From NCBI GenBank assembly GCA_046598945.1, contig JBKJHT010000121.1, positions 6,862-70,861 on the forward strand: a stretch of 64,000 nucleotides of DNA. The letters are read 5' to 3'. The DNA comes from Burkholderiales bacterium (GTDB lineage: Bacteria; Pseudomonadota; Gammaproteobacteria; Burkholderiales; JALYOK01). Positions 6,450 to 30,573 of this stretch are shown here, piece by piece. Positions within the stretch are counted from its first letter, which is position 1; each line of letters starts with the position of its first letter. The translations under genes were made by a program, and so were the position numbers. The notes beneath the pieces are model-generated. The model was not told where the DNA came from. It searched no databases and worked only from the letters and a program-made list of their open reading frames with translations.

Positions 6450-6457
6450 AGGATTGG

Positions 6458-10939: not shown

Positions 10940-11026
10940 GAGCGCATGCCGAAGACGGGTTGTCGGGTGAATGTGACTGAATAAATATGGATGACGGCAT
11001 CCGGATAAAAGAGTTGCATTGTCGTG

Positions 11027-12169: not shown

Positions 12170-12199
12170 CTTTGCTCGCCTTCTCCCATTCTTCGTTCC

Positions 12200-13691: not shown

Positions 13692-13720
13692 TTGACTACG
13701 CATTCTGAATTCGGTATTCT
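13692..13720 (+). promoter_or_regulatory. Sigma70-type promoter of the Rieske-PQQ operon with overlapping palindromic operator
   Basis: TTGACT-17 nt-TATTCT; operator GCATTCTGAATTCGGTATTC at 13700-13719. Confidence 0.75.
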
Positions 13721-13810
13721 GACCGCTCGTAAATAGTGATTGCTGACGATGTTTCCCATATCCAGTTCCGGCGAGATTTCGTTAGATTTTGCAAATAGAA
13801 AGGAAATGCT

Positions 13811-14389
13811 ATGACAAACAATGAAGTAGAGAGTTGTGCGACCAACAAACCGATCAATCCAAAACGTCGTCGCGTGATCGAAATTGCGGTCGCAGGCGTG
13901 GCGGCAAGCTTCACCGGATTAAGTGTTGCCGAAACGGCGCCTGGCGCGGGTGATCGTCTCGTCCTTGATGACGCGGAAGGCGAGCCGGTGGCGCTACGCG
14001 CTGCGGACTTAAAGGTCGGCAAGCCGATCTTAGCGTTTGCATTTGATAAGGCAACCAAGGAAATGCGCAACGGCTCGCGCTTGCACAAGATCATGTTGAT
14101 CAAATTGGACGAAGCTGACCTTAACGCCGAAACCAAGGAGCGTGCGGCATCCGGCGTCATCGCGTTTTCGGCGATCTGCACCCACCAGTCCTGCGACGTG
14201 AAAACCTGGATCGCGAAGGAAAAGGCGTTGGTTTGCTTTTGTCACTCGACCAAGTTTTTACCGCTTGAGGCGGGCAAGGTCGAAAGCGGCCCCGCGACCC
14301 GTGCTTTGCCCACGATTCCGCTTAAATTAGAAGATGACGAACTGGTTCTCGCCGGTACTTTTAGCGCGCGGACGGGTCCGAGCGCCTAA
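13811..14389 (+). CDS. Exported Rieske [2Fe-2S] protein (QcrA/AioB-like)
   Basis: CTHQSC and CFCH boxes, GPA..ALP loop, twin-arginine-like KRRRVI followed by a hydrophobic stretch. Confidence 0.9.
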   Translation: MTNNEVESCATNKPINPKRRRVIEIAVAGVAASFTGLSVAETAPGAGDRLVLDDAEGEPVALRAADLKVGKPILAFAFDKATKEMRNGSRLHKIMLIKLDEADLNAETKERAASGVIAFSAICTHQSCDVKTWIAKEKALVCFCHSTKFLPLEAGKVESGPATRALPTIPLKLEDDELVLAGTFSARTGPSA

Positions 14390-14461
14390 CGACGGCTGAA
14401 CAAATTTTGTAGTATCGCGGCGTTACGGCGCCGCCCATTTCACAACCACGAGGAGCATTAA

Positions 14462-16186
14462 ATGAAATTTGTAATGAAAGCGCTGTGTGCCGCCGCTTTG
14501 ATCGTACCCGCGATCACGGCTACGGCATCGGACTACGCGCCGGTCACTGACCAGCGTCTCACCAACCCGGAAGCGGGCAACTGGCTGCAATACCGTGGTA
14601 ACTATGCGGGCTGGGGCTACAGCCCGCTGGAAAAGGTTAACGCCGGCAACGTTAACAAGCTGCAAACCGCCTGGTCGTTCTCGACCGGTGTGGCAGAAGG
14701 CCACCAGTCGCCTCCCATCGTTAACAATGGCTATATGTACATCACCACGCCGGGCTCGCAGTTGATCGCAATCGACGCCAGAACCGGTGGCGAGTTGTGG
14801 CGTTATAAGAAGGAAGTTTCGCCCGAGATGCTGCAATTGCATCCGACTAACCGTGGCGTCGCGCTCTATGGCGACAAGGTTTATGTCGCAACGGTTGATG
14901 CGCATTTGGTCGCCCTCGACGCCAAGACCGGCAAGGTCGCTTGGACCAAGCAAGTCGGCGATTGGAAAGCGCTGCAATACATCACCCTCGCGCCGTTGGC
15001 TGCTAAGGGCAAGATCATGGTCGGTTCCTCCGGCGGTGAAACCGGTGTGCGCGGCTTCGTCGCTGCTTACGACGCGCAAACCGGTAACGAAGCTTGGCGC
15101 ACCTTCATGACGGCCGGCCCCGGTGAACCCGGTGGCGACACTTGGCCTGGCGAGACCGCCAAAACCGGCGGCGCGTCGATCTGGATCACCGGTACTTACG
15201 ATCCGGCGACCAACCTCGCTTTCTGGGGTACGGGCAACCCGGCACCGTGGCCGATCCATCTGCGCAAGGGCGACAACCTCTATGCGACGTCCGTTGTTGC
15301 ACTCGATGTCGATACCGGCAAGCTCAAGGGCTATCACCAATACCACCATAACGACGCGTGGGACTGGGATGAAGTTTCCGCGCCTCTATTGATCGACACC
15401 ACCGTGAACGGCAAAGCGGTCAAAACCGCCGTCCACGCTGGCCGTAATGGATATCTGTGGGTGTTGGAGCGTACTGCCGACAAGATCAACTATCTTGCTT
15501 CCCATAAATACGTGTTGAACGACGTGTTTACCGGTATCGATGCCAAAACCGGCCGCCCGAGCTACGACGCTGCCAAGACACCCGGCACGGAAAAGCCGGT
15601 GAAATTCTGCCCGTCGCTTTGGGGTGGTAAGGATTGGGTGCCCGAGGCGTACAACCCGAAAACCAAGCTGTTCTACATCCCGGCCAATAACAACCTCTGC
15701 TCGGAATTGCCGGCTGCCGACAAAGAAGTACCGTACAAGAAGGGTGATCTGTTCATCGGCTATCCGATCGACGGCGTACTCGGCAGTTTGCGTTGGGCCG
15801 ATGCGAATGCGCCTAAGACCATTGGCGAAATCCAAGCTTGGGACATTTCCACCGGCAAACAAGTGTGGACACACAAGTTCCCGACTTTTATGTGGGGTCC
15901 GATCCTCACTACCGGCGGTAACCTCGTATTCGCCGGCGGCACCAACGATCGCAAATTCCGTGCATTCAACGCGACCAACGGCAAGCCGCTATGGGAAACC
16001 ACCATGCCTTCCGGCGTGACCGGTGTGCCGGTTTCCTACGAGGTGGATGGCGAACAGTACATCGCTGTTCAGGCCGGCTGGGGAGTTGATGCGCAGCGCA
16101 TGCAAAGCGGCGTTGACGCGCTACTCGGCAACAAGACGGTCGTTCCGCAAGGCGGCGTGCTTACGGTGTTCAAGTTAGCTAAGTAA
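14462..16186 (+). CDS. Periplasmic PQQ-dependent dehydrogenase, methanol/ethanol-family fold, atypical
   Basis: Sec signal; beta-propeller repeats (LDAKTGK..W); NRG, GGE, W, GNP, WDWD, GRNG; no CxxCH heme domain. Confidence 0.92.
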   Translation: MKFVMKALCAAALIVPAITATASDYAPVTDQRLTNPEAGNWLQYRGNYAGWGYSPLEKVNAGNVNKLQTAWSFSTGVAEGHQSPPIVNNGYMYITTPGSQLIAIDARTGGELWRYKKEVSPEMLQLHPTNRGVALYGDKVYVATVDAHLVALDAKTGKVAWTKQVGDWKALQYITLAPLAAKGKIMVGSSGGETGVRGFVAAYDAQTGNEAWRTFMTAGPGEPGGDTWPGETAKTGGASIWITGTYDPATNLAFWGTGNPAPWPIHLRKGDNLYATSVVALDVDTGKLKGYHQYHHNDAWDWDEVSAPLLIDTTVNGKAVKTAVHAGRNGYLWVLERTADKINYLASHKYVLNDVFTGIDAKTGRPSYDAAKTPGTEKPVKFCPSLWGGKDWVPEAYNPKTKLFYIPANNNLCSELPAADKEVPYKKGDLFIGYPIDGVLGSLRWADANAPKTIGEIQAWDISTGKQVWTHKFPTFMWGPILTTGGNLVFAGGTNDRKFRAFNATNGKPLWETTMPSGVTGVPVSYEVDGEQYIAVQAGWGVDAQRMQSGVDALLGNKTVVPQGGVLTVFKLAK

Positions 16187-16208
16187 TTTTTGTAGTTTAG
16201 TACGCTCT

Positions 16209-16259
16209 AATTTGCCCCCGACGCCGTAGAATTGGCGGTGTCCGGGGCGAATTGTTTTT
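16209..16259 (+). terminator. Probable intrinsic terminator
   Basis: GC-rich imperfect stem (TTGCCCC...GGGGCGAA) followed by TTGTTTTT, just after the PQQ gene. Confidence 0.55.
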
Positions 16260-16328
16260 GACGAATAGCTTTATTTCGCGCTAGTGCTAGCACGCATATC
16301 GCAACCATTGAATTGAGGAGAACCATTC

Positions 16329-17000
16329 ATGATCGTCGTGCATCATCTCAACAACTCGCGCTCACAGCGCATCCCGTGGTTGCTGGAGGAACTGGGCGTG
16401 CCTTACCGGCTCGAGCAACATCAGCGCGATGGCAAAACCAATCTCGCACCACCCGAATTGCGCCTGATCCACCCGTTAGGCAAATCGCCGGTTATCCAAG
16501 ATGGTGATCTGACATTAGCCGAGTCGGGCGCCATTATCGAGTATCTGGTCGAGCGCTATGGCGCGGGACGGCTCGTGCCGCAGCGCGGTTCGAGCGAGCA
16601 TGTCCGCTATTTATATTGGATGCACTTTGCCGAGGGCACCATCATGTTGCACATGGTCGCGCGACTTTATCTCATCCGCGTCGGTGAAGCGGCGAAGGCA
16701 ATGCTGGCGCGCGTCGAGGCGATGATCGGCGACGAGTTGGATTTGGTCGAGGGCGAACTTGGCCGTAGCGCGCATCTCGCCGGAACGGAATTCAGCGCCG
16801 CCGATGTGCAGATGGTATTTCCATTGGAATTTGCCGCGTACGGTGGGCTCCTAACTGAACGTCACGCCAAGCTGCGCGACTATCTCGCTCAGATGCAGGC
16901 ACGCCCCGCCTATCGCCGAGCAGTGGAAAAGGGCGGTGCATACGCATTCGATTCTGTTAGCGCCGGCGATGCCGCGCCGTTTCCAATGCCCGGGCGCTAA
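16329..17000 (+). CDS. Glutathione S-transferase
   Basis: HHLNNSRSQRI.WLLEEL, HPLGKSPV, ESGAIIEYL, FSAADVQM. Confidence 0.93.
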   Translation: MIVVHHLNNSRSQRIPWLLEELGVPYRLEQHQRDGKTNLAPPELRLIHPLGKSPVIQDGDLTLAESGAIIEYLVERYGAGRLVPQRGSSEHVRYLYWMHFAEGTIMLHMVARLYLIRVGEAAKAMLARVEAMIGDELDLVEGELGRSAHLAGTEFSAADVQMVFPLEFAAYGGLLTERHAKLRDYLAQMQARPAYRRAVEKGGAYAFDSVSAGDAAPFPMPGR

Positions 17001-17096
17001 TAGTTCGTACTAGCCGTCCCGATACGGTCGGACAGGCGCAGTGCACTGGCCGATGCACTGTCCAAAACTGAAAAATGCCTTAACAAAGCGCCCTGC

Positions 17097-17723
17097 TTAA
17101 ATACCACGCGCGACGTCTACTGCCAGGGCTTTCGCTGCATCGCGGGAGCCCTGGTCGACCTCCGGGCCGAACAACGTCTTTTCTATCGGTATCAGCGCAA
17201 TGTCGGTGATGCCATTGGAATTCAGCCAGACTGTCAAATAGGATGTTTGAACGTCCCAACTGCGAGAAGCGGATTCCGGCGCGTAATCTATTCCTTTCGC
17301 CAACACCAGCACGGCCTTCTTGCCGGTGAGCAAACCCAGTAGGCCACGTTCATCGAAGGTAAATAGGATATCTTTTTGCGACACCACGTCGATGAGATGC
17401 TTTAGCTTGTACGGAATACCCCAGTTCCACATCGGCGCAGATATCACGATCGTATCGGCTTCTTTAAAGGGGCGCGCCAACGACTCAATCGTTTTCCAGA
17501 CTCGCTTTTGCTCGTCAGTGCGCTCGCGGCCTTCGATCCCCGCGTACTTTGCCTCTATCGCCGCGCCGTCGAATTCGGGCAGCGCCAGATTCCATACGTC
17601 GATCGTCTCCATTGTATGGCCTGGATGCGATGCTCGGTAGGCGTCCAAAAATGCTCGAGCTACTTCAATGGAGGCCGAGCGTTGCTTGCGTGGGGATGAT
17701 TCAACGTACAGTAAGTTTGCCAT
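17097..17723 (-). CDS. FMN-dependent NADH-azoreductase/quinone reductase (AzoR/AcpD family)
   Basis: SSPR...SAS, APMWNWGIPYKLKHLID, GLLTGKKA. Confidence 0.9.
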   Translation of the reverse strand: MANLLYVESSPRKQRSASIEVARAFLDAYRASHPGHTMETIDVWNLALPEFDGAAIEAKYAGIEGRERTDEQKRVWKTIESLARPFKEADTIVISAPMWNWGIPYKLKHLIDVVSQKDILFTFDERGLLGLLTGKKAVLVLAKGIDYAPESASRSWDVQTSYLTVWLNSNGITDIALIPIEKTLFGPEVDQGSRDAAKALAVDVARGI

Positions 17724-17843
17724 GGGTGGTTTCCTTTTGGGTTGGTTGCAATATTTTATCGTAAGCGTTACTCGAATTTAAGGCTTACGGCGGGTGGTGA
17801 TCGTAAAAAATTACGGGTATTGAACACGCCTTTCGCATCAGTG

Positions 17844-18455
17844 CTAACGCGGCATCGTCTGCGCAAAAGATTCGCGTTTTCTGAGCTGCTGCGACAACGC
17901 ATCCAGCGTCGGCATCGGCGGTAACCAAGGCGCATCGGCAAAACGAAAACGTAGATAGTCGAGCGCGACGGTGGTGCAAATGGCGTCCAGCGTTGGTGCG
18001 CCTTCGCTTGCGAAGGCTACGCGCGACGCGATCGCTTCGAGCCGCGCCATGCCTTCCGCCATGGTGCGTCGCCGGCGCAATCCGACCGGCGTGTCATCAA
18101 ACAGCAGCGGCGCGGTGACTTTTCGAATGATGATGGTATGAACCGCCGCGTCGATCACGCCCATCGCGGCACCCGCGCGCGAAAGTACGTTTGCAGCATC
18201 CATTCCTAGCAGGCTCGGGAACGCCGGTGCCGGTCGCGTGTGCTCAAGCCATTGCACGATCAACAAGCTTTCAGTAAGCGGCGTGCCGTCGTCGGTAATC
18301 AACGTCGGCACACGCGTAGCGGCATTGGCATTGCGTAAACGTACATCGTCGGCCCACGGGTCAACCAATGTGGGTTCAACGTACAGGCCTTTTTCGATCA
18401 TCGCGACTCGTGCGATCCGTACATAGGGTGACGTGGTATTGGCAAGTAATTGCAT
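17844..18455 (-). CDS. Glutathione S-transferase-like protein
   Basis: TSPYVRIARV, RVPTL, ESLLIVQWL, ALDYLRFRF; start moved to ATG 18455. Confidence 0.85.
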   Translation of the reverse strand: MQLLANTTSPYVRIARVAMIEKGLYVEPTLVDPWADDVRLRNANAATRVPTLITDDGTPLTESLLIVQWLEHTRPAPAFPSLLGMDAANVLSRAGAAMGVIDAAVHTIIIRKVTAPLLFDDTPVGLRRRRTMAEGMARLEAIASRVAFASEGAPTLDAICTTVALDYLRFRFADAPWLPPMPTLDALSQQLRKRESFAQTMPR

Positions 18456-18489
18456 AGTGTTAGCTTTCGATAAAGTGTTTAGCGACCGA

Positions 18490-19248
18490 TCAATACATGA
18501 TATGGCCGCCATCGACCACCAGCGTTTGACCGGAGACGAATCCCGCCAGATCCGAGAGTAAATAAAGCGCCGTACCGACCAAATCGTCGGGGCGCTGCTC
18601 GCGCGAAATGGCGCGTGCTTTCAAAAACATTTGCTGCCACTCGATCGGGCGGTTGCGCGTGGCATCGGTGATGACGAATCCGGGCGCAATCACATTGACG
18701 CGCACACCATGCTTGCCGGTTTCTTTCGCGAGACCTTTAGTCATCGATAGCACTGCTCCTTTGCTCGCGACGTAGTGCAGGTAGCCCGGCTGCCCCGCCA
18801 CCGCGACGACGGACGCGATGTTGACGATGCTGCCGCTGCCTTGCTTGCGCATGGCGGGCATCACCGCTTTGCAGCACAGCCACACGCCTTTGACGTTGAC
18901 ATCGAATAAGCGATCCCATTGCGCGGAATCGAGTTCCTCGAAATCCGTGAGTTTGATTTCGCGGAAGTAGGCGGCGTTGTTGATCAGGCCATCGATTCGG
19001 CCGAAGCGATTGACCGCGGCATCAGCCATCGCACGAACCGAGGTTTCATCGGCGACATCGACGCGCAGGCTGATTGCTTGGCCGCCAAGCTTTTGAATGG
19101 CGTCAACGGTTTCATCGGAGGCGTTCATATCAGCGACGACGACATTGGCGCCCTGCGCGGCGCAGCCGACGGCGAAAGCTTGGCCGATGCCAGTCGCGGC
19201 GCCGGTGACAACGATAGTGTGATTGGTGAGAAGGTTATTTGTGGTCAT
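18490..19248 (-). CDS. SDR-family oxidoreductase, probably NAD-dependent
   Basis: TGAATGIG, NNAA, Ser, YVASK, Asp after beta2 (VADMN). Confidence 0.93.
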   Translation of the reverse strand: MTTNNLLTNHTIVVTGAATGIGQAFAVGCAAQGANVVVADMNASDETVDAIQKLGGQAISLRVDVADETSVRAMADAAVNRFGRIDGLINNAAYFREIKLTDFEELDSAQWDRLFDVNVKGVWLCCKAVMPAMRKQGSGSIVNIASVVAVAGQPGYLHYVASKGAVLSMTKGLAKETGKHGVRVNVIAPGFVITDATRNRPIEWQQMFLKARAISREQRPDDLVGTALYLLSDLAGFVSGQTLVVDGGHIMY

Positions 19249-19279
19249 GGTAATGATCTCTTGGCAGTTAAATTGAAGA

Positions 19280-19696
19280 CTAGGGTTTACTCGTTGTTAA
19301 AGAAGTGGCAAGCGCCGGGCAGCGCTTACCTTTTTCGCAACGCTCGACTTGCATGCGTCGAATAAAGCGATCACGGTTTGGCGCACTAAGGTCAACTTGA
19401 ATCGCCCAAACGCCAGGCATTTCCAGCTCTAATTGAGTGCGATACTCGCCGGGGTGATTGGTTGCGACGGCGACAACAGGCTTGATGCTGTGCGCCATAG
19501 GCATCGACGGCATATGAGCGGCTAGCGTCACTGTCGCGGTTTTAATCGGTTCTCCGTTTGCGTTTTGTAGGCGGGCGGTGCATTCAAGCGCTGGACCTTC
19601 GCCAATCGAAACGCATTGCAACTCAAGCTTTGGTCGCGCATCCGCGTGGGCCATGCCGATCAGCGCGATGCATAAAAAGAAAAATCGGACGTTCAT
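19280..19696 (-). CDS. Secreted YtkA/FixH-like Ig-fold protein
   Basis: Signal peptide; HMPSMPMAH motif; PGEY...LEMPGVW pattern; four Cys in the mature part. Confidence 0.75.
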   Translation of the reverse strand: MNVRFFFLCIALIGMAHADARPKLELQCVSIGEGPALECTARLQNANGEPIKTATVTLAAHMPSMPMAHSIKPVVAVATNHPGEYRTQLELEMPGVWAIQVDLSAPNRDRFIRRMQVERCEKGKRCPALATSLTTSKP

Positions 19697-20604
19697 CGCG
19701 ATGCTTGTGTTCGAGCGCGAAATAGCTGGGTGAATCGATGCACCAACGCTTCATCGAGCAATCCGCGCTGGCGCCAGCGCAAAAACAATGCGACCAGCAA
19801 ACCGAATACCACCATGCGCCAGCCCGCGAACACGCGCGTGGCTTCCAGCAATCCCAAATCGAACGCGACACCCAGCAACGGTCCTAAGCACGTACCGAGT
19901 CCGCCGATTAAGGCATAGCTGACGGCGTGCACGCCGAGCATCGGATCGAACAATGCGGGTTCGATGTAAGTCGCGCGATGTGCGTACAAACCACCACCCA
20001 AAGCGGCAAGCGCACCGGCCGTAGTCGCGGCGACCAAACGCAAGCGCGTAACGGCCAAGCCTTGCGTGGCGGCAAGTACGTCGTCGTGGCCGGTCATGCG
20101 CAGTGCGACGCCCAATCTGCGCCGCTCCAGCCATGCAAATGCGAGCAACACGATTGCCAGCACAGCGGCGATTAATACCAAGTATTGTGACGGTGAAACA
20201 TCGTTTTCCAGCAACCAGCGGATATCGCGAAAGCCATCCAGCCCCGCCGGCCCAACCGGGCCATCGCTCGTTTCCTGCTGGAAGTACCAGGCTTGTAAAC
20301 CCACGCGTACCATCTCACCAAACGCGAACGTCGCGACCGCGTAGTGCAACCCGGAAAGAGGCATGGTGGGCAAGGCCAACAAGCACGACGCGAGCGCGCC
20401 GACCAGCATTCCCGCGAATAATGCGATGGAAAGCGGCCAGTGGGCCATGGCCGAAGCGATACCGGACACGTAGGCGCCTATGCCGAAGAATGCTTGCTGG
20501 CCAAACGAGATTCGACCCACCAGTAGCAATAAATACGCGGACAACGCGAGTAGCGCCATAATGCCCATGTCGCTGGCGAGCCCGACGGCGTGTTCAGCGG
20601 ACAA
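19693..20604 (-). CDS. Liv-type ABC permease (LivM-like), second copy
   Basis: GRISFGQQAFFGIGAY, AVATFAFGEMVR, GGLGT..GP. Confidence 0.9.
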   Translation of the reverse strand: MSAEHAVGLASDMGIMALLALSAYLLLLVGRISFGQQAFFGIGAYVSGIASAMAHWPLSIALFAGMLVGALASCLLALPTMPLSGLHYAVATFAFGEMVRVGLQAWYFQQETSDGPVGPAGLDGFRDIRWLLENDVSPSQYLVLIAAVLAIVLLAFAWLERRRLGVALRMTGHDDVLAATQGLAVTRLRLVAATTAGALAALGGGLYAHRATYIEPALFDPMLGVHAVSYALIGGLGTCLGPLLGVAFDLGLLEATRVFAGWRMVVFGLLVALFLRWRQRGLLDEALVHRFTQLFRARTQASR

Positions 20605-21523
20605 GCGTCGCTTCCTTGTTAAACGTCACCGAACGCCACGGCGCTACCAGCACGAGGAACAGCAACGCGTAGGTTGCGAACTCACGGCCCGCCGCGCCAA
20701 ACAGCGCTTGCGCGTGGGCTTCAACCACGCCAAGCAACAAACCGCCACACAACACGCCGCTGATAGAACCTAATCCGCCGAGCATGGCCGCGACGAGTCC
20801 TTTGACCAGCACCCACATACCGAACATCGGTGTAACTTGACCTGCCAAACTCAGCACAGCAAATGCCGCGATGCCGGACAGCGCGCACGCGAACGCGAAA
20901 GCGAGACGTTGCACGCGCCGCACCGAGATGCCGGCAAGCTGCGCAGCGGTGGGCTGATCCGCCGCCGCGCGCCACGCCAATCCACCACGGCTGACACGCA
21001 GCCAGCGCGCTAGGGCGAACGTGAGCACGATCGCCAGCAACGCAAGTACCAGCCGGTCCGTACGTAACACTAACGGTCCCAGATTCCATTCTTGCGACAC
21101 GGCTAACGATGGAAATGGATTTAAGTGGCGCGGTAACAGATTTACGGCGAGTTGCTCGAGTTGCATCCAGATAGCAAAGCTCGATGCCAGCGCGACGACT
21201 TCGCGGCCATCTCGTCCCGCGACCGGTGGACCGCCACGAACAGCATCTTGACCCGATTCGGATGTGTTAGAGAAACACAGCCATTCGACGTAGAGGCCTA
21301 TCAAGGTCGCCATGCCGATGACAACGATCGCGATGAAAAATATAGGGAGCTCATAACGCTGGTGCAACCATGCGCCGACGTAGGCAGCCAACATTGCGCC
21401 CGCGCCGTAGGCAAGATTCAAGCGCTTGAGGGTACCGAATGTGAGTGAGAGGCCGAGGCCGATCAGCCCGTAGGTTGCACCATCGAGCAGGCCATCCAAC
21501 GTGCGTTGTAGGAGCTCGATCAA
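20594..21523 (-). CDS. Liv-type ABC permease (LivH-like), second copy
   Basis: YGLIGLGLSLTFG..RLNLAYG, LGGLGSISG. Confidence 0.9.
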   Translation of the reverse strand: MIELLQRTLDGLLDGATYGLIGLGLSLTFGTLKRLNLAYGAGAMLAAYVGAWLHQRYELPIFFIAIVVIGMATLIGLYVEWLCFSNTSESGQDAVRGGPPVAGRDGREVVALASSFAIWMQLEQLAVNLLPRHLNPFPSLAVSQEWNLGPLVLRTDRLVLALLAIVLTFALARWLRVSRGGLAWRAAADQPTAAQLAGISVRRVQRLAFAFACALSGIAAFAVLSLAGQVTPMFGMWVLVKGLVAAMLGGLGSISGVLCGGLLLGVVEAHAQALFGAAGREFATYALLFLVLVAPWRSVTFNKEATLVR

Positions 21524-21533
21524 AACTCTCTCT

Positions 21534-21680
21534 TAGGGAAGCTCTGAATAAGTTCGAGTTCTAAATGAGACAAGGCGCGAACAAAAAATAGCGACGCAGC
21601 ATATGCGTGATATATAAGGAGATATTTTTTTTGAGCAACGCAGGATCATGACGAAATCGGACTTATTCAGAGCTTCCCTA
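21534..21680. mobile_element. 147-bp MITE-like palindromic element
   Basis: Perfect 20-bp terminal inverted repeats TAGGGAAGCTCTGAATAAGT / ACTTATTCAGAGCTTCCCTA with TA at both ends. Confidence 0.85.
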
Positions 21681-21682
21681 GC

Positions 21683-22399: not shown

Positions 22400-22415
22400 G
22401 GCTGTTCTCCGAAAT

Positions 22416-23177
22416 TTAGGCCGCTTTTGCCGCAGGCGTGTCGCTGCCCAAATAAGCCGTGCGTACTTGTGGATCGTCTTGCACTTGAGCCGGGGTACCC
22501 TCAGCAATCTTACGGCCGAAGTTCAACACCGCAACACGATCACACACGCCCATCACCAATTCCATGTGATGTTCGATTAGCAAAATCGTGCGGCCATCGT
22601 CGCGTAATTTTCGAATGCGATTATCGAGATCGTCAATTTCTTCCACGTTCATGCCGGCCGCGGGCTCGTCGAGCAATAGCAATTCCGCACCGGACGCCGC
22701 AGCCCGCGCCAACTCCAAGCGGCGTTGTTCGCCGAACGCGAGATTGCCGGCGAGCATGTCGCGCTTGTTCGCCAAGCTGCTAAATTCGAGCAGCGCTTCA
22801 GCTTGTTCACGCGCGGCCTTGGCGCCCGAGAGCCAACGCTCACGAATTCCCGCCCATCCGGTCGCACGAACAACGCGCGCGGCCCACACGTTTTGCCAGA
22901 CGGTGAGATGGCCGAATAGGCGGATATTTTGAAACGTGCGCGCGATGCCCAATTCACAGCGTTGGTGTTGTGCGAGATCGCCTAGGTCTTGGCCTTTGAA
23001 GTGGATCGTTCCCGAGGTCGGTTTAAACAGTCCGGCGATAAGATTGACCGTCGTGCTTTTGCCCGAACCGTTGGGACCAATCAGTCCGAGAATTTCACCT
23101 TGGCGGACTTGTAGATCGAGTTGATCGACCGCTTTTACGCCACCGAAATGACGGCTGACATTTTTGAGTTCAAGCAT
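22416..23177 (-). CDS. ABC ATPase (LivG-like)
   Basis: GPNGSGKST, RTFQNIRLF, LLLDEPAAG, IEHHM; start moved to ATG 23177. Confidence 0.93.
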   Translation of the reverse strand: MLELKNVSRHFGGVKAVDQLDLQVRQGEILGLIGPNGSGKSTTVNLIAGLFKPTSGTIHFKGQDLGDLAQHQRCELGIARTFQNIRLFGHLTVWQNVWAARVVRATGWAGIRERWLSGAKAAREQAEALLEFSSLANKRDMLAGNLAFGEQRRLELARAAASGAELLLLDEPAAGMNVEEIDDLDNRIRKLRDDGRTILLIEHHMELVMGVCDRVAVLNFGRKIAEGTPAQVQDDPQVRTAYLGSDTPAAKAA

Positions 23178-24099
23178 GATTGGCCTGCGCTTGAGTCTTA
23201 ATGGAATCGGTGGACGTTGAACGCGAACGCCACGGTAAGCGTAACGCACCGCTCAACACACCACTCGGGCGAATGAGCATCACGAGCAAAATCAACGCGC
23301 CGAACAACAGACTGCGCCAATCGCCGAGAAAACGTAGACCTTCGATGAGAAACCCTTGAATGAAAATCACCGCGATCACCGTGCCGGCGATGCTGGCAAG
23401 TCCACCGAGAATGGGGTACGCGATGGCGAATGTCGCGAGCAAAATCGTAAAATTGCCGTGCTCAATGTGAGTTGCGTAGTGGGCGAATAGTGCGCCTGCT
23501 AACCCAGCGATTGCACCACCGATGCCGAACGCGGACACTTTTGCGACGGTAAGATTAATCCCGACGCTTTGCGCAGCGACTTCGTCCTCGCCCACGGCGC
23601 GCCACAGCGTGCCGATGCGGGTGCGATCTAGCCTCCAGAGCAGCAGCATCACTAACGCGACTAGCACCCAAATGAAAGCAGCGACTTGCCACACGCTCCA
23701 GCCGTGACTCGGAAAGTAGCGAATTCCGCCGAAACCGAGCCCGCCATTTGGGCCAATTGGGCCTTGCGACGTTTGGACTTGCCAGGTGAGGTTGAAGAAC
23801 ACCAAGCGCACAATTTCCGCAAATGCCGTCGTCGCGACGACCAGCATCAATCCTTTCACGCGCAGCGCAGGAAAGCCTACCGCGATGGCGACTGCCGCCG
23901 CGATCAGCGAGGCGGCCGGGAGTGCCAAAAGTAACGGCCAACCGAACATTGCGGTCAGCATGCCTGCGGAATACGCGCCGATTGCAAAGAAGCCGCCTTG
24001 CGCCAAGCTCACTTGGCCGGTGTGCAACACGCACCACGCAGACAACCCCAACAGCGTGTGAATGCCGATGACTTGAGCGAGACTCAAATAGAAGTCCAT
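23170..24099 (-). CDS. Liv-type ABC permease (LivM-like)
   Basis: TGQVSLAQGGFFAIGAY, VATTAFAEIVR, RAVGEDEVAA. Confidence 0.92.
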   Translation of the reverse strand: MDFYLSLAQVIGIHTLLGLSAWCVLHTGQVSLAQGGFFAIGAYSAGMLTAMFGWPLLLALPAASLIAAAVAIAVGFPALRVKGLMLVVATTAFAEIVRLVFFNLTWQVQTSQGPIGPNGGLGFGGIRYFPSHGWSVWQVAAFIWVLVALVMLLLWRLDRTRIGTLWRAVGEDEVAAQSVGINLTVAKVSAFGIGGAIAGLAGALFAHYATHIEHGNFTILLATFAIAYPILGGLASIAGTVIAVIFIQGFLIEGLRFLGDWRSLLFGALILLVMLIRPSGVLSGALRLPWRSRSTSTDSIKTQAQANHA

Positions 24100-24111
24100 G
24101 GCGATCTCCCG

Positions 24112-24996
24112 TTAGTCCCGTCCGCCGGGCGCGCTGAACAAGCCGCCCGGCCTAAATACCAGGAACACAAAGAGCAGCAGCATTACATAGATATCGCGCT
24201 CGCTCACACCGCGCAAAAACTGAAATAAATTTTCGGCCCCGCCGACGATCAATCCCGCGACGATCGCGCCGGGTATGCTACCGAGTCCACCAATTACCGT
24301 AACCACCAAGCCTTTCACAGTCAACGGCAACGACAATAGCGGGGATAACACGCCAATCGCCGCGCCAGCCATTGCGCCAGCGGTGCCGCCGAGCAGGCCG
24401 GCGATGACGAAGGTGCTGGCATTGGTGCCATCGACACTCATGCCGCACAGGCGTGCCGCGATGGGTTGTTGCGCGACAGCACGAGTCGCGAGGCCGAGGC
24501 GAGTGCGCTTTAATAGCAGCGTGAGTCCCACCATCGCCAAACAGCCAAGGGCGAAAACAAACAACAAATCGCCACGAATCATGAACGGACCGATTTCGAA
24601 ATTCGCGCCGGAGAATAGCGCCGGATAATTGAGTGGCATGCCATCGGTCGCGTGGACGATGGTTTCCTCCAAGAGCAACAACATGCCCACCGTCGACATC
24701 AACGTAGCAAGCGGTTTATCGAGTGGGACGAAACGAAAGCAAATGAAATAAATCAACGCGCCCAACCCGCCGCCCATGAGTGTTGCGACTAAATAAACGA
24801 CGGGCGACGGTACAATCTTTACGACGATTAAACTCAAATACGCGGCGCCAATGGAAGCAGCCGCGTAAGAAAGATTGATTTTGTGCATCACGCCGAAGAT
24901 CAGCGTAAAGCCGATACCGATTAATGCGTAAATGGTACCGAACATCACCCCGTCGAAGACCGACTGCATGAGGTCCAACAGATCCAACATTGACAT
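24112..24996 (-). CDS. Liv-type ABC permease (LivH-like)
   Basis: YALIGIGFTLIFGV...INL, IGGLGSIPGA, RPGGLF; exact start uncertain. Confidence 0.92.
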   Translation of the reverse strand: MSMLDLLDLMQSVFDGVMFGTIYALIGIGFTLIFGVMHKINLSYAAASIGAAYLSLIVVKIVPSPVVYLVATLMGGGLGALIYFICFRFVPLDKPLATLMSTVGMLLLLEETIVHATDGMPLNYPALFSGANFEIGPFMIRGDLLFVFALGCLAMVGLTLLLKRTRLGLATRAVAQQPIAARLCGMSVDGTNASTFVIAGLLGGTAGAMAGAAIGVLSPLLSLPLTVKGLVVTVIGGLGSIPGAIVAGLIVGGAENLFQFLRGVSERDIYVMLLLFVFLVFRPGGLFSAPGGRD

Positions 24997-25071
24997 GACG
25001 GAGTGCGTCCTTGAAGTACGCTGCTTTAGTCGCAACCTCGCGCGAAATTTTCCGCGCGAGGTACGAGGTCG

Positions 25072-26289
25072 TTATTGGCCCGCAGGCGTATGCGCCACGA
25101 CCCAAGCGCCACTTTGTGCTTGCACGAAGAGGAACGGTTTGATCGCTTCGCGGTCTTTTGTGCGGCCAACTTTGCCGAGCAAGCCTTGGGTTTCTGTCAT
25201 ATTCGCCAAAGCTTCACGAATTTTTTGACGGTCGGCTTGAATGGTTTCCGGACGCGCCATGATCTTGTTTTTCTCGATCAAATTCTTCAGCGTGAAAATG
25301 TTTTCCCAGGCCGCAGCGTTGTGCAAATCCATGCTGGCATTCTGCGCGGCCAAGGCTTCGGCAGCTTTTTTAGCTTCCGGCGTCACCGGCGCGAAGCTGG
25401 TTGGAATCAAGATCCCTTCAGCCTGTTGCGCGCAGCCGTTCAAGGTTTCCATGCTTGAAGAGCTGGTTAGACCGACCAACATTTTCGGCTTCACGCCTTG
25501 GCGCTGCATTTCTTTCAGCACGCCGCAGGTGGTGAAGGGGTGTGCAGAAATTGCGACCACATCAGCGTTGGCACGCTTCATTTCGCGCACTTGCGTAGAA
25601 AAGCTGGTATCGGCGAGCAGCCACTCGCTTTGACCTAAGACTTCGAATCCACCTTTAGTCGCGATGTCTTTCATGGAATTAAACGTCGCATTGCTGTGAG
25701 CGAAGTCCTTCTCCACGCCGCCCCAGAATGTCTTAACTTGCGGGTGGCTAGTTTTGATCCAGTCGAACATGCTCTTATACATTGTCGCTTCGCTCGGCAC
25801 ATTGCGGAATGCCCACTGCGAAATCGATGCGAGGCCACCTTTCGCCGCCACGTCGGTGTAGAGCGGGAACTGCAACCCGGAATCGCTAGCATCGCCTACT
25901 TTCTTTTGCAGAATGCCGAATACCGGCTCGGCAACGCTGCTGCAGGTTGGGCCGACTGCGACGATGCCATCTTCAGACGCAGCGATGCGACGCAGCACGT
26001 TGATGCCCTCTTCCACGTTGCAGCGATCGTCCAAGTATTCGATGACGAGTTTCGCTTTTGCACCGTCACCCATTGTGACGCCACCGGCCTTGTTGATCTG
26101 ATCCGCGGCAGCCTTCATTGCCGCTTCGCTGTTCAAGCCGAATATACGAACCACGCCGCTTTTAGCGCCGAAGCCATAAATTTTGACGGTGCGCTCTTGT
26201 GCAACTGCTGAAACGCTGGCCACCGATACGGTTAGCGCGCTAGCGAGAACCGTGAGGGCAATACGAGAACGATTGTAAAACTGAACCAT
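25072..26289 (-). CDS. Liv-type ABC substrate-binding protein
   Basis: Signal peptide; INKAGG, DDRC, VGPTCSS, AFRN pattern; GGAGG RBS. Confidence 0.9.
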   Translation of the reverse strand: MVQFYNRSRIALTVLASALTVSVASVSAVAQERTVKIYGFGAKSGVVRIFGLNSEAAMKAAADQINKAGGVTMGDGAKAKLVIEYLDDRCNVEEGINVLRRIAASEDGIVAVGPTCSSVAEPVFGILQKKVGDASDSGLQFPLYTDVAAKGGLASISQWAFRNVPSEATMYKSMFDWIKTSHPQVKTFWGGVEKDFAHSNATFNSMKDIATKGGFEVLGQSEWLLADTSFSTQVREMKRANADVVAISAHPFTTCGVLKEMQRQGVKPKMLVGLTSSSSMETLNGCAQQAEGILIPTSFAPVTPEAKKAAEALAAQNASMDLHNAAAWENIFTLKNLIEKNKIMARPETIQADRQKIREALANMTETQGLLGKVGRTKDREAIKPFLFVQAQSGAWVVAHTPAGQ

Positions 26290-26397
26290 GACAGACCTCC
26301 TCAGAGAATTTAAAAAACTACCAATCGATAACCTTGAAAGTTGGAGTACAGCGTTCGTACTTTTTTATACCGATATTGCAAACTTCATTTCATCCAG

Positions 26398-28137
26398 CTA
26401 GCGATGCCCAGCGCTCTGACGCCAGTTGCGTTCTGCTTCGTCCCAAACGCCGAGCGCCTGAAGGTCAGGCACCCAAGCTAAGCCGGTTTTTCCGTCAGAC
26501 GATTTCGCTTCCGGTGTAACGACTACATCTAGCAAAGAGGGACGGTTTGCCAGGGCACGTTCGATGGCGCCGGGCAGGTCTTCAGTTCTTTCTACGCGTT
26601 CCGCATGCATGCCGAAGGCGCGCGCCATCGCGGCATAATCGGAGAACTGCAAACGCGTGCCGACTACTTTGCCGTGGGTGTCGGTCTGATCATGGACTTC
26701 AATTTGCCACGCGCCATTGTTCGCGACTACGATCAACACTGAAGCCTGATGTCGCACGGCAGTGTCGATCTCCATGGCGTTGAAGCCGAACGCGCCGTCG
26801 CCGGTCGCGACGACCACTTGCCGATCGGGATAAGCGAGGCTCGCGGCGATACCGAACGGCGTGCCAATGCCAATGCACCCAAGGGAACCTGGATCAAGAT
26901 AGGTAGACGCGGGCAATCCGACGCGCGCGAAGCTCAAGAAATCGCCGCCGTCCGCAATGATCACTGCGTCAGGCGCGAGTTGTTTTTGCAACTCGCCGAG
27001 CAAACGATTGGGATGAATGCGTCCATCGCTTCCTGGTGCAGCCGTTTGCATGGCTTGGCGCAGTTTGATTGCGCGCTCTTCGTGCTTTTGTCGAGTGGTG
27101 GTCAACCAATTGCGCTCGGCATTGGCTGCGCGATTACCTGCAACGTGAACCATCGCGCTAAGCGTAGCTGCCGGTTGCGCGAAGATTTCCACTTCGCCTC
27201 TTCGATTGTCGCGCAAGTCGCCAGGCGCATCGCCAATGCGGATGAAGCGCGCAGCGCCGAATATCGCAGGCGAGCCGAAGGCCAATTGGAAATCGAGACG
27301 GCGACCGAGCGTAACAATCACATCGGCTTCGGTCATCACGGTGCCGCGCATCGCCGCGACGACGGACGGATGCGAGTCCGGCACGAGGCCTTTGCTTTCG
27401 CCGGTATCAAGATACAGCGCGCCGCATTTGTCGAGCAACGCTGTCAATTCGGGGCCCGCGCCACGCGCGCCGCGGCCGCTGATGATCAACGGCCGCCTCG
27501 CCGACCAAAGCAGTTCGACTGCGGCCTCAATATCGTTGGGATCGGGACGCAAAACCGGCTTTGCCTTCGGGCGGAAATGTTCCTCCAATTGCAGCGGGCG
27601 CGGCACTTCGGCACGCAACGTGTCCACCGGAAAATCTAAATACACCGGGCCAGGATCGCCACCTTGTCCGAAGGCGCGGGAAACGGCTTCATCGAGTTCT
27701 TGCAACACTAAAGAAGGTTCACGCACCGTCCGGGCATAACGCGTGAGCGAGCGTACTAAGTCCGTATGGACGATGTCCTGCAACGCGCCGCGATTTTCTT
27801 GCGGGCGCGGCGGCAGGCCCGATAACACCAGCACCGATGCGCGTGCGATGTGGGCATTGGCGATGCCGGTCATAGCATTCGTAACCCCAGGACCGGCGGT
27901 TACGAGCGCCACGCCGAGTTGCCCGGTGAGTTCGCTGTGGGCGTGGGCCATGTACACCGCTGCACGCTCATCGCGCACGTCTATGATACGGATGCCTTCG
28001 GCATCGCAACGCATAAAGATCGGCATGATGTGGCCGCCGCACAGCGTAAAGATGCGATCCACGCCGCGTGCTTTAAGAAATCGGGCGATGACACCCGCGG
28101 CGCTATCGGCGGTGATCGGCGGAGGTGTAATGCTCAT
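26398..28137 (-). CDS. ThDP-dependent enzyme, 2-hydroxyacyl-CoA lyase-like (actinobacterial 2-hydroxyisobutyryl-CoA lyase type)
   Basis: DVRDE catalytic Glu, TAGPG, GALQD, GDGAFG...NN ThDP motif followed by AWQIE..DQ, and C-terminal lid GLAWVPDLQALGVWDEAE. Confidence 0.8.
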   Translation of the reverse strand: MSITPPPITADSAAGVIARFLKARGVDRIFTLCGGHIMPIFMRCDAEGIRIIDVRDERAAVYMAHAHSELTGQLGVALVTAGPGVTNAMTGIANAHIARASVLVLSGLPPRPQENRGALQDIVHTDLVRSLTRYARTVREPSLVLQELDEAVSRAFGQGGDPGPVYLDFPVDTLRAEVPRPLQLEEHFRPKAKPVLRPDPNDIEAAVELLWSARRPLIISGRGARGAGPELTALLDKCGALYLDTGESKGLVPDSHPSVVAAMRGTVMTEADVIVTLGRRLDFQLAFGSPAIFGAARFIRIGDAPGDLRDNRRGEVEIFAQPAATLSAMVHVAGNRAANAERNWLTTTRQKHEERAIKLRQAMQTAAPGSDGRIHPNRLLGELQKQLAPDAVIIADGGDFLSFARVGLPASTYLDPGSLGCIGIGTPFGIAASLAYPDRQVVVATGDGAFGFNAMEIDTAVRHQASVLIVVANNGAWQIEVHDQTDTHGKVVGTRLQFSDYAAMARAFGMHAERVERTEDLPGAIERALANRPSLLDVVVTPEAKSSDGKTGLAWVPDLQALGVWDEAERNWRQSAGHR

Positions 28138-29780
28138 GATCGTTCCTTGGCGGGTTTACGCGTTTGTTTTTTGAGCGCACGAAGATCGATCACACCAGGT
28201 TCCTTAAGTGGATCGGTTCCCGGCGGAAAGATGCTAACCTTTTGAATCTTTTGCGAGCTGGTTGTCGGTAGTTTGTCGACGAACAGAAAATACGCAGGCG
28301 CTTTAAAGTAGGCGAGGCGCTCGCAGCAGTACTCAAATAGCTCGCGTGCGAAATGTTCACCGGCTTGATCCGAGGCTTTCGGAATCACGAGCGCCATGAC
28401 CTCTTCCTCGCGAATTTCATCCGGTACGGCGATTACTGCGACTTGTTTAACTTTGTCGTGCGAGGTGATGCATTCTTCGATCTCGGCGGCGGCGATGTTT
28501 TCTCCGGCGCGGCGGATGATGTTTTTGCTGCGGTCCATGAAGAAATACATACCACTTTCATCGCGCTTGACGACATCCCCGGTGTGGAACCAGCCGTTGC
28601 GCCAGGCTTCGTCGGTCGCCTTTTGGTTTTTCAAATAGCCGCTGAAAAACCCTTCGCGCGGCGTTTCGGCGCTGTGGCGGATAACCAGTTCTCCGCCCTC
28701 GCCGACGGGAACTTCGTTGTCGTTGGCATCGACGGCACGTAACTCGGCGCCGTGCACTGATCGTCCGAGTGCGCGGGTGTGGATCATTCGTGGTTCTTCG
28801 TGTGCGGTGGTCATGCGGCCGGTTTCGGTCATGGCCCACATTTCAACTAACGGGAAACGGTAACGGCGCTCGAATTCTTCGTGTAGGCTCGGCTCGCAGC
28901 CGGCGCAAAGTGCAAACTTGACTTTGTGTGTGCGCTCCAATGGCGAATTAGGCAACTTCAGCAGGATCGCCGGAATGACGCCTTGAAACTGAATCGCGGT
29001 GACGCGGCAGTTCACAATATCATCCCAGAATGTGCTGGCGTGAAAGCGATCGGGAAACACCAAGCATCCGCCGGCGAGCAACATGGCGGGCAGCGAAATG
29101 GAAAAGGCATTTGCATGATGCAGCGGCAGCGGATTGTAAAGCCGCTCTTCGCCGTCCTTGAGCGCTAGCGTATGGCCGCGCGAAAGAAACCACTGACCCC
29201 AGTAGTGAAAATACTCGTTGGTCAGCACGCAACCTTTTGGCCGTCCGGTCGTGCCCGAGGTATAGAGCAGACCCGCTTCGGTTTTGCCGTCGGGGACTTC
29301 GTTCTTCGCCGGGACCAGCGGTCTGGGCAATGCGGCGGATAAATCGTCGAACGGCAATACCGGTATCGGCTTCGCAAGCGCGTTTGAGGCGGCTTGCAAA
29401 TCGGCGAGGCGCTCCTTGATGCCAAAAGCAACACAACACTCGGAATGTTCGAGCAGATAAACGATTTCGTCGTGGCGATAGTCCGGGTTGACGCTGACGG
29501 TGCTGCATCCCAGCGCATTCAACGCGAAGTGGTGAAACACGAACTCGGGCCGCTGCTCGAACAAAATCGCGACACGGTGTCCCGGCCCATAGCCGGCATC
29601 GCGATAGAAGCGAATTCGCTCTTGCACGGCTGAGAAAGTTTCGTTCCAGGTATATTCCTTACCTTCTGGATAATAAGCGCGACCGGCCATAGGCGGGACC
29701 GCATAGGCGGGGCGATCGCCATACTTCGCGACGCTACGTTGCAACGATTGATAAAGTGTGCCGAGGGCTAGGGCGTCCAT
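28134..29780 (-). CDS. Acyl-CoA ligase (CaiC-like AMP-binding protein)
   Basis: YTSGTTGRPKG, WAMTE, WFHTGD, DRSKNIIRRAGENI, KIQK; overlaps the ThDP gene by 4 nt (ATGA). Confidence 0.92.
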   Translation of the reverse strand: MDALALGTLYQSLQRSVAKYGDRPAYAVPPMAGRAYYPEGKEYTWNETFSAVQERIRFYRDAGYGPGHRVAILFEQRPEFVFHHFALNALGCSTVSVNPDYRHDEIVYLLEHSECCVAFGIKERLADLQAASNALAKPIPVLPFDDLSAALPRPLVPAKNEVPDGKTEAGLLYTSGTTGRPKGCVLTNEYFHYWGQWFLSRGHTLALKDGEERLYNPLPLHHANAFSISLPAMLLAGGCLVFPDRFHASTFWDDIVNCRVTAIQFQGVIPAILLKLPNSPLERTHKVKFALCAGCEPSLHEEFERRYRFPLVEMWAMTETGRMTTAHEEPRMIHTRALGRSVHGAELRAVDANDNEVPVGEGGELVIRHSAETPREGFFSGYLKNQKATDEAWRNGWFHTGDVVKRDESGMYFFMDRSKNIIRRAGENIAAAEIEECITSHDKVKQVAVIAVPDEIREEEVMALVIPKASDQAGEHFARELFEYCCERLAYFKAPAYFLFVDKLPTTSSQKIQKVSIFPPGTDPLKEPGVIDLRALKKQTRKPAKERS

Positions 29781-29797
29781 AGTTTCAAGTCGAGTAG

Positions 29798-30508
29798 TTA
29801 AGCCGTGCGATTCACGCGCCGTACGGTTTTCGCGGGAAGTTGTTTGTTCTGATTGAGATGTTGTTCCAAGCGGCCGGCCAATACATCGGATGCATGCGCG
29901 ATATGATGCCGGGCAATGCGCTCGGCTTTGGCGGCCTCGCCGGAGATGATGGCGTTTAGGATTGCTTCGTGCTGATCCCAGATTTCACCCGGCGTTTCTT
30001 CGCGCAACACCGCGGCCATCACTCGCCGCAAATAGTTCCAGTGCGGCGTGCAAATCTCGCCAATCAGCGGATTTCCGGAAAGACGGTAAAGAAAATAATG
30101 AAATTCCATATCAGCGATAGTCATCTGCGCGATGGAGCGATTTTTCACAGCCGTCCGGCCGCGGGCGAGATAAGGAGGGCCTTCTTTTTTGGCAACGTTC
30201 GCAGCAACCTCGGCAACCTTGGCGCTGGCGAGTCCGTCGAGCATTGCTCGCACTTCGAGAAGATTACGCACATGGGCGGGATCGAGTGGCGCGACCATCA
30301 AGCCGCGCCCCGGGGCATCGCGCAATAACCCACGGCTACGTAATAAGAGTAGCGCCTGTTGCACCGGCTGACGCGATACGCCCAGCGTTTCGGCTAGTTC
30401 TTCTTGAATTAAACGGCTGTCAAGCCCAAGCCGTCCTTCGATGATTTCCGTAAGGATCGATTCGTAAACTTGGTCGACTAACGTGGGTTGAGGGGTGAGC
30501 GTGCGCAA
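29798..30508 (-). CDS. GntR/FadR-family (FCD) transcriptional regulator
   Basis: LIQEELAETLGVSRQPVQQAL HTH; FCD motifs DMEFH, SGNP, HEAIL. Confidence 0.93.
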   Translation of the reverse strand: MRTLTPQPTLVDQVYESILTEIIEGRLGLDSRLIQEELAETLGVSRQPVQQALLLLRSRGLLRDAPGRGLMVAPLDPAHVRNLLEVRAMLDGLASAKVAEVAANVAKKEGPPYLARGRTAVKNRSIAQMTIADMEFHYFLYRLSGNPLIGEICTPHWNYLRRVMAAVLREETPGEIWDQHEAILNAIISGEAAKAERIARHHIAHASDVLAGRLEQHLNQNKQLPAKTVRRVNRTA

Positions 30509-30544
30509 AGCCGTCGAACTCGATGAAAAAAAGTGATGATCATG

Positions 30545-30573
30545 AGTTTAGCATTCTGAATTCAGCATTCCAA
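30545..30573 (-). promoter_or_regulatory. Sigma70-type promoter of the gntR operon with overlapping palindromic operator
   Basis: Minus strand TTGGAA-17 nt-TAAACT; operator GCATTCTGAATTCAGCATTC at 30551-30570. Confidence 0.72.

Follow-up and report, generated by a model that had tools for sequence, protein, structure and literature searches.

The DNA analysed here (the window) is a stretch of 64,000 nucleotides from contig JBKJHT010000121.1 of a Burkholderiales bacterium (assembly GCA_046598945.1), whose genome of 4,135,642 bases (4.14 Mb) is called G000; further G-numbers denote other genomes, C-numbers contigs of G000, and L-numbers loci. The window carries two 20-bp palindromes in two predicted sigma70 promoters, P1 in front of genes for a Rieske protein and a pyrroloquinoline quinone (PQQ)-dependent dehydrogenase, and P2 in front of genes for a GntR regulator, an acyl-CoA ligase, and a 2-hydroxyacyl-CoA lyase. 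Comparison of these sequences among genomes indicates that the palindromes are probably operators of this FCD-type GntR, and that both units probably form one regulon. The features concerned are the following:

13692..13720, plus strand: P1, predicted sigma70 promoter (-35 at 13692-13697, -10 at 13715-13720; 9/12 consensus bases)
13700..13719, no strand: operator 1, predicted GntR site overlapping the P1 spacer and -10 (25.8 bits, rank 2 in the genome)
13811..14389, plus strand: Rieske [2Fe-2S] protein (PF00355; CTH and CFCH ligands)
14462..16186, plus strand: PQQ-dependent dehydrogenase, methanol/ethanol family (TIGR03075, 563.8 against a cut-off of 480.05)
26398..28137, minus strand: 2-hydroxyacyl-CoA lyase, AcHACL type (NF058623, 826.7 bits against a cut-off of 600)
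28134..29780, minus strand: acyl-CoA ligase, CaiC-like, 548 amino acids (no family cut-off reached)
29798..30508, minus strand: gntR, GntR winged helix-turn-helix plus FCD (VanR-like) regulator (PF00392, 49.3 bits, and PF07729, 75.5 bits, both above the cut-off)
30545..30573, minus strand: P2, predicted sigma70 promoter (-35 at 30573-30568, -10 at 30550-30545; 8/12 consensus bases)
30551..30570, no strand: operator 2, predicted autoregulatory GntR site (28.7 bits, rank 1 in the genome)

The two 20-mers are identical at 18 of 20 positions, as a preliminary description of this DNA had reported, and both are imperfect palindromes with self-complementarity at 14/20 (site 1) and 16/20 (site 2) positions; another reading of each is a tandem of three NGNATTC heptamers. 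The -35 and -10 hexamers and the 17-bp spacers agree with that description as well. Its statement that the sites overlap the spacers holds with a refined extent: site 1 takes up 15 bp of the spacer and five of the six bases of the -10, and site 2 takes up the whole spacer and three bases of the -35. Operator 1 ends 91 bp from the Rieske start and operator 2 lies 42 bp from the gntR start. A match of 18/20 is not rare in itself, with 25 such pairs in the window besides a REP-like palindromic repeat family (6363-6450, 38454-38535, 40140-40220, 42494-42565, and 58070-58105); these 25 are the operator pair, the inverted repeat of a miniature inverted-repeat transposable element (MITE), a hairpin, and about 22 others. 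The consensus promoter scan calls P1, leaves P2 under its threshold, and finds fewer promoter-like matches in the region than in shuffles (5 vs 9.3). Since the bare match is common and the promoter scan uninformative, the significance of the operators rests on their conservation. Site 1 (20/20), the -35, and the -10 are fully invariant in G000, G004, G006, and G007, with 31/52 and 46/75 invariant positions (~60%) in the flanks of the same four genomes. The geometry of P2 recurs among 29 sites upstream of gntR genes, 22 of which have TTG at the left edge and 17 a -10-like YAnnnT hexamer directly 3' of the site. No further sequence in G000 comes within three mismatches of either 20-mer, and the heptamer-trimer pattern matches exactly twice, at the two sites; with two copies genome-wide, the 20-mers are not a high-copy repeat in G000.

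The preliminary description assigned the motif to the GntR of the window, and comparative genomics supports this ownership. Every close gntR orthologue whose upstream region is covered (7/7) has the palindrome in front of it. We analysed the best 80 of 457 lyase loci confirmed in genome_contigs; a GntR homologue is present in 48, of which 45 carry the site, and five further sites lie in lyase loci without gntR in view. The 45/48 count relied on likeness to the window palindrome, and an unseeded 10-mer count was therefore made upstream of the GntR genes: the commonest 10-mer is TCTGAATTCA, which with its overlaps occurs upstream of 29 of the 53 GntRs of at least 48% identity. Most of the misses in the 10-mer and site counts are gntR genes located downstream within an operon that has the site at its head. 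A matrix of 27 distinct sites, all from records other than G000, ranks site 2 and site 1 first and second in G000 (28.7 and 25.8 bits), the next matches being 18.4 and 17.8 bits, and the maxima in three base-shuffled genomes are 23.1, 18.3, and 13.1. The fourth match (17.8 bits) is upstream of a decayed paralogous ligase/lyase on C84; the third and lower matches on C39, C14, C45, C9, and C123 show no link to the pathway. In five cluster-bearing genomes (~25 Mb), 10 of the 11 pattern matches fall inside the cluster and the reversed control gives 0, which speaks for specificity and not for presence because the pattern was drawn from such sites; the 11th match lies inside an unrelated open reading frame (ORF) of Noviherbaspirillum.

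A paralogous GntR clade (40-46% identical) has the TGTATACA core instead in all 11 loci, one site of which was drawn from the unpublished genome G008 and bears no conclusion. The matrix of the paralogues gives 10.9 bits for site 1 and 11.9 bits for site 2, vs 27.3 for its own site. In a tree of 69 GntRs, the two operator cores sort by branch, a pattern that shows clustering only, since related sequences share labels. In the recognition helix, most members of the TGAATTCA group have RQPVQ, and most of those with TGTATACA have RQPVL. R46, H180, and H202 of the window GntR align with R45, H192, and H214 of PDB 6Z74, corresponding to the DNA-reading arginine and the metal-binding histidines, and D133 and H137 are present and invariant in 11 rows. 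The GT..AC boxes of the FadR-subfamily consensus are absent from the TGAATTCA core and present in TGTATACA; as in regulons of that subfamily, the operator is kept upstream of orthologous regulator genes and targets.

That the Rieske and PQQ genes belong to the same regulon, as had been proposed, also finds support in comparative genomics. Among 30 usable Rieske genes (of 32 rows; in L276 and L261 the gene is at the locus edge), 10 have a site of at least 20 bits within 350 bp, namely those of four congeners and, outside the genus, of Rhizobacter, Noviherbaspirillum, Variovorax, Azoarcus, L260, and G166. A further six lie directly downstream of lyase, ligase, or gntR, and the remaining 14, with no lyase in the DNA examined, score 2.2 or less. 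Following comparative practice, an own operator when the unit is separate and none when it is fused argues for membership in the regulon. Ten of the 80 lyase loci have Rieske and PQQ genes no more than 10 kb from the lyase, and operator 1 stays with the Rieske gene where the upstream neighbour differs (G006 and G007). In a sample of 400 genomes of the order, six of the eight out-of-family genomes with a PQQ orthologue (at least 63%) hold lyase and GntR, three of them being also among the 80 lyase loci; the lyase frequency overall is 37/400. The two exceptions, G316 and G083 (100% and 99% complete), have neither such a GntR nor the site, and a GAF/sigma54 activator lies beside their Rieske-PQQ unit.

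Individual genomes show how the parts combine. In Azoarcus sp. KH32C, sites lie between lyase-gntR and ligase and two more upstream of Rieske-PQQ-aldA; the complete cluster of this cultured strain, on pAZKH (L334), comprises TRAP, acyl-CoA dehydrogenase (ACAD), short-chain dehydrogenase/reductase (SDR), APH kinase, DUF6285, phosphatase, gntR, lyase, ligase, Rieske, PQQ, and aldA genes, and adjoins formate dehydrogenase and H4MPT genes. G350 has gntR-Rieske-PQQ with a 31-bit site and its lyase on a separate contig. A metagenome contig of 42% GC has the order gntR, site, cytochrome c, PQQ dehydrogenase, second site, ligase, lyase. A MauG/MbnH-like di-haem enzyme (below the cut-offs; L205:11759-12862) recurs in 11 lyase loci and also lies near Rieske-PQQ in G350.

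We propose that a GntR dimer would bind the TGAATTCA-centred palindrome and block RNA polymerase at both predicted promoters; the position of the operator between the -35 and the -10 points to repression by exclusion of the polymerase, and DNA looping over 17 kb is not part of the proposal. A small hydroxy acid of the pathway may bind the metal-containing FCD domain and release the GntR, which would induce both units, gntR itself included. From the shared operator we infer a common inducer and a single pathway. The substrate of the periplasmic PQQ enzyme would be a 1,2-diol or hydroxy-aldehyde of short chain, and the electrons would probably pass to the Rieske protein. An aldehyde dehydrogenase (AldA, beside the PQQ gene in many relatives and absent from the window) would yield a 2-hydroxy acid, to be imported and activated with CoA; cleavage by the lyase would then release formyl-CoA together with an aldehyde or ketone. 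Whether the substrates are indeed 1,2-diols and 2-hydroxy acids we consider an even matter.

The proteins fit these steps to different degrees. An Asp-x-Asp motif, by its second Asp, marks the lanthanide-type PQQ alcohol dehydrogenases, and a vicinal Cys-Cys over the PQQ and a cytochrome c partner are typical of such enzymes. The PQQ enzyme of the window has the D-x-D metal motif (WDWDE vs WDFDG of PDB 6ZCV, which we take to be PedH), as do 11 of the 12 proteins of its clade examined, the twelfth being truncated, and LHP in place of CCD, without the vicinal Cys-Cys; it thus looks like a lanthanide-type enzyme with a Rieske partner. The Rieske protein has an RR-containing N-terminus and is likely exported by the Tat route. 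AldA (NF007497, above the cut-off) is found with the PQQ clade more constantly than any other partner, accompanying the PQQ gene in L261, L262, L264, L274, G316, G083, Azoarcus, Paracoccus, and Alteromonas. The lyase, by its profile and residues, is of the AcHACL type and predicted to form formyl-CoA: it matches PDB 7PT1 at E 7.5e-188, and its E480, Q120, L119, I479, L553, and V556 correspond to E493, Q128, L127, I492, L566, and V569 of AcHACL, with Cys at the position of AcHACL Gln41. According to the available parts of two reports, the active-site and lid residues of AcHACL limit its substrates to C5 or less (PMC8760513, PMC13327070), and the same size is likely for the acyl substrate here; the accessible portions of the literature searched do not name natural substrates for such lyases from proteobacteria. 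The best profile of the ligase is CaiC-like NF004808, below the cut-off, and its 16 PDB matches at E<=1e-30 include no 2-hydroxyisobutyric acid (2-HIBA)-CoA ligase. G000 has formate dehydrogenase and pqqE and no formyl-CoA transferase above the cut-off; a search of G000 with PF08882, directed at the fate of acetone, gave no match, and its control matched nowhere either.

A number of observations weigh against the assignment of both units to one GntR regulon and one 2-hydroxy acid pathway. Three of the 48 gntR-holding lyase loci have no site, the training sites of the matrix were chosen by resemblance to the window palindrome, and many of the loci are related. In metagenomes, at least 120 stretches matched the pattern and 80 were analysed; two (L095 and L152) are real clusters, and the other 78 are without a gntR homologue and look like tandem repeats of a heptamer, so that the pattern alone is no marker of the regulon. 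Such GCATTCT/GAATTCT tandem repeats are common in unrelated metagenome contigs (L075-L154) and mimic the operator. G004, G006, and G007 keep operator 1 intact, and no orthologous gntR was found in these incomplete assemblies (78-88% complete, 420-520 contigs), nor a lyase in that of G006. Weak sites precede the lyase unit of G350 (13.6 bits) and the units that head Rieske-PQQ in L264 and L236 (10.1 and 8.7 bits). Three genomes (G219, G260, and G296, equal to L202, L234, and L236) are counted in both the order sample and the lyase loci. Seven relatives with a close gntR have no close Rieske orthologue; in G003 (L046:14125-19177), the last 46 codons of the PQQ gene remain and the ligase is frameshifted, which suggests loss. 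A similar remnant of 36 codons lies between gst and sdr in G009 (L061). As for the enzymes, the ligase is no more than a candidate 2-hydroxy acid ligase, and the G000 cluster has no AldA orthologue (best 39%).

With the regulon taken as real, the substrate might instead be a 4-hydroxy or 4-oxo acid or a lactone, degraded by an lva-like route with beta- and then alpha-oxidation, so that the PQQ enzyme would act downstream or in parallel, and the PQQ enzyme and AldA would clear alcohol or aldehyde products or feed in 1,4-diols. Downstream of the lyase, L228, L243, L247, G350, and Azoarcus have ACAD, SDR, and APH-kinase genes, a class III PhaEC and a hydrolase are linked to the lyase, and mammalian 4-hydroxy acids are degraded through phospho-CoA (LvaA/LvaC-like) and beta/alpha-oxidation routes, as the available part of PMC12440821 describes. 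However, this gene set of the relatives is not in the window, the ACAD homologues of G000 are distant (33%), its APH (50%) is unlinked, and AldA is a 2-hydroxyaldehyde enzyme by family name; we regard a 4-hydroxy acid substrate as possible and doubtful.

Operator 2 might be autoregulatory and operator 1 be read mainly by the paralogous GntR on C23 (43% identical, TGTATACA-type), or by both proteins. Operator 1 persists in G004 and G006, where the paralogue alone was found, and in G007 all that was found is a broken paralogue. Both motifs have the same flanks, and at one aligned position before the binding-protein gene the core is TGAATTCA in G006 (L058:1956) and TGTATACA in G009 (L059:2033), which points to cross-talk or a possible regulator switch. 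However, operator 1 scores 10.9 bits with the paralogue matrix and 25.8 with that of the orthologues, the operator type tracks the GntR tree, and G004, G006, and G007 are incomplete, the lyase contig of G007 ending where ligase-gntR is expected. A reading of operator 1 mainly by the paralogue is therefore quite improbable. This paralogous GntR (C23:6815-8399; L047:2035-3571), with its TGTATACA operator, stands ahead of a PhyH-family dioxygenase (Pfam match on the G003 copy), and a PhyH 2-hydroxylase together with the lyase would form a pair for alpha-oxidation; the two gntR genes of G003 are 3 kb apart. Decayed paralogous ligase-lyase genes with a weaker operator (17.8 bits) lie at C84:11008-12141 and C24:7776-8930 of G000, and G007 (L065) has the unit in undamaged form but without its gntR.

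The GntR might also bind both sites and activate, or have no effect, at P1, or operator 1 might mainly serve the divergent phaE-phaC-hydrolase-MFS genes. No other strong site lies in the 561-bp divergent gap, one site in a divergon often acts on the units to either side (PMC4494728, available text), and the pha/MFS block is lyase-linked in other genomes; against this, operator 1 sits between the -35 and -10 of P1, 91 bp from the Rieske gene vs 450 bp from phaE, and remains with the Rieske gene despite a changed upstream neighbour in G006 and G007, which makes these variants very unlikely. That the pair is a chance match or a heptamer repeat, with operator 1 conserved merely as part of a promoter, is hardly credible and largely refuted by the gntR loci with a site (45/48), the distant Rieske-PQQ sites, and the in-cluster specificity (10/11): about 22 other 18/20 pairs in the window, the 78/80 metagenome repeats without gntR homologue, and the closeness of the congeners (87-95% protein identity) would favour it, but G000 has two copies only, six distant genomes place the palindrome before Rieske-PQQ, and the P1 spacer bases, usually free to vary, are invariant.

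One regulon of the window GntR thus remains the preferred explanation, and the genes around its two operators extend the cluster as follows:

8647..13249, minus strand: phaE-phaC (class III)-hydrolase-MFS, divergent from operator 1 and 450 bp away
16329..17000, plus strand: glutathione S-transferase (gst1), last gene of the plus-strand unit
17097..19696, minus strand: distal genes of the minus-strand run, namely ytkA-like, SDR, glutathione S-transferase (GST), and azoR-like flavodoxin
19693..26289, minus strand: LIV-type ATP-binding cassette (ABC) importer with binding protein, two permease pairs, and two ATPases, split by a MITE

Gaps in the minus-strand run from gntR to the azoR-like gene are at most 159 bp, which makes read-through from P2 into the distal genes likely. 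The binding-protein gene of G000 starts 108 bp after the lyase gene and has no site of its own, and a consensus scan, itself uninformative, called no terminator between the two. Its orthologue in G006 carries its own site (25.1 bits), and a weak site precedes it in Limnohabitans, there ~14 kb from the lyase site; the binding protein has no solved relative at E<=1e-8. The MITE (~150 bp with terminal inverted repeats, 21532-21682) lies between livF and livH2, with 19 copies of at least 120 bp in G000 and many in congeners. The two units are convergent with sites 17 kb apart, as the preliminary description stated, and this spacing is particular to G000: in G003 and G007, the ends of gst1 and lyase are 3-4 bp apart without the 9.4-kb ABC/SDR/GST/azoR block, which was thus gained in G000 or lost in those genomes. 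The word island used there finds no support, the GC content being flat across the window and a horizontal origin not shown. To the left, the cluster extends to MFS-hydrolase-phaC-phaE, linked to the lyase in other genomes (phaC beside the lyase in L234, L236, L263, and L264; MFS in L202, L227, L234, L236, and L243), and the class III PhaEC possibly stores hydroxyacyl-CoAs of the pathway. Overlapping ORFs at 31214-32016, upstream of P2, have no Pfam match and resemble a broken transposase.

The shared operator assigns an orphan pair of Rieske protein and PQQ dehydrogenase to a 2-hydroxyacyl-CoA lyase pathway independently of gene order. More tentatively, and with less than even confidence, we suggest a widespread, undescribed proteobacterial regulon, in which lanthanide-dependent PQQ oxidation of diols or hydroxy-aldehydes via a Rieske protein, not cytochrome c, would precede thiamine-dependent C1 cleavage to formyl-CoA, and in which the GntR core would have switched from TGTATACA to TGAATTCA with the Leu/Gln difference in the recognition helix; the PQQ dehydrogenase would work without the disulfide, and a bacterial alpha-oxidation would feed formate and possibly polyhydroxyalkanoate metabolism. 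The 2-hydroxyacyl-CoA lyases are sought for one-carbon elongation. With a defined operator and cultured carriers, namely Azoarcus sp. KH32C, Noviherbaspirillum suwonense DSM 26001, and Variovorax brevis J22R133, the substrate question is reducible to a simple reporter or thermal-shift screen, and the two GntR clades, whose operator cores are close to one another, offer a clean test case for a change in DNA specificity.

A full-text literature search, with most subscription papers, bioRxiv supplements, and RegPrecise outside its range, returned no description of the regulon, the operator, or a lyase-linked PQQ enzyme partnered by a Rieske protein, and the breakdown route indicated by the shared operator is likely undescribed; the regulatory logic is ordinary, that of a GntR/FCD regulon of local scope whose operator core is a variant. 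The papers compared below are cited from their available parts. As in FadR-subfamily regulons (Suvorova et al. 2015, PMC4494728), an A/T-rich palindrome lies near the regulator gene with autoregulation, and the extra half-boxes 7-12 nt away in that subfamily resemble the heptamer extensions of the window sites; the boxes are GT..AC there and GA..TC in the window operators, and CTGAATTCAG has no occurrence in the site lists of two supplementary files of that paper. Atu1419 of Agrobacterium fabrum (VanR group FCD/GntR, PDB 6Z74; PMC7797058) resembles the window GntR in its winged helix-turn-helix and FCD domains and its Arg45 and His ligands, and it acts as a repressor of its own gene and of separate units by way of palindromes that lie in -35/-10 regions, a geometry like that of P1 and P2. 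It binds ATGTATACAT, whereas the core within the 20-bp site of the window is TGAATTCA; the best aligned stretch of the two proteins has an E of 4.7e-8, and the pathways differ.

In the case of the Pseudomonas putida lva operon and the ACAD10-11 route (PMC12440821), kinase, ACAD, SDR, and ligase genes have counterparts beside the lyase in several relatives, but the set is absent from the window, and the accessible lva description has no lyase or PQQ enzyme. Enzymes of the PedH/ExaF type (6ZCV) share TIGR03075 and the aligned Glu, Asn, and Asp-x-Asp metal ligands with the window PQQ enzyme, which differs in lacking the vicinal Cys-Cys, in its Rieske rather than cytochrome c neighbour, and in its place in a lyase regulon. 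A further counterpart is the gntR-lyase-HCL-mpdCB cluster of Actinomycetospora chiangmaiensis, which converts a diol to a 2-hydroxy acid, its CoA ester, and a ketone plus formyl-CoA (PMC7176365). No operator is described for it in the available parts of PMC7176365, PMC8760513, and PMC13327070, and no MpdB/MpdC-type gene, a mark of the actinobacterial lyase-HCL (2-HIBA) clusters, occurs among the window ORFs scanned. Both clusters combine a GntR, a CoA ligase, an AcHACL-type lyase with the same active site and lid, and alcohol oxidation in one inducible set, as described in the same papers for A. chiangmaiensis and as predicted for the window. Compared with A. chiangmaiensis, the alcohol step of the window would be periplasmic and of the PQQ/Rieske kind instead of the NAD-linked MpdBC, the ligase is a CaiC-like protein of 548 amino acids instead of the 465-residue HCL, and the host is betaproteobacterial.

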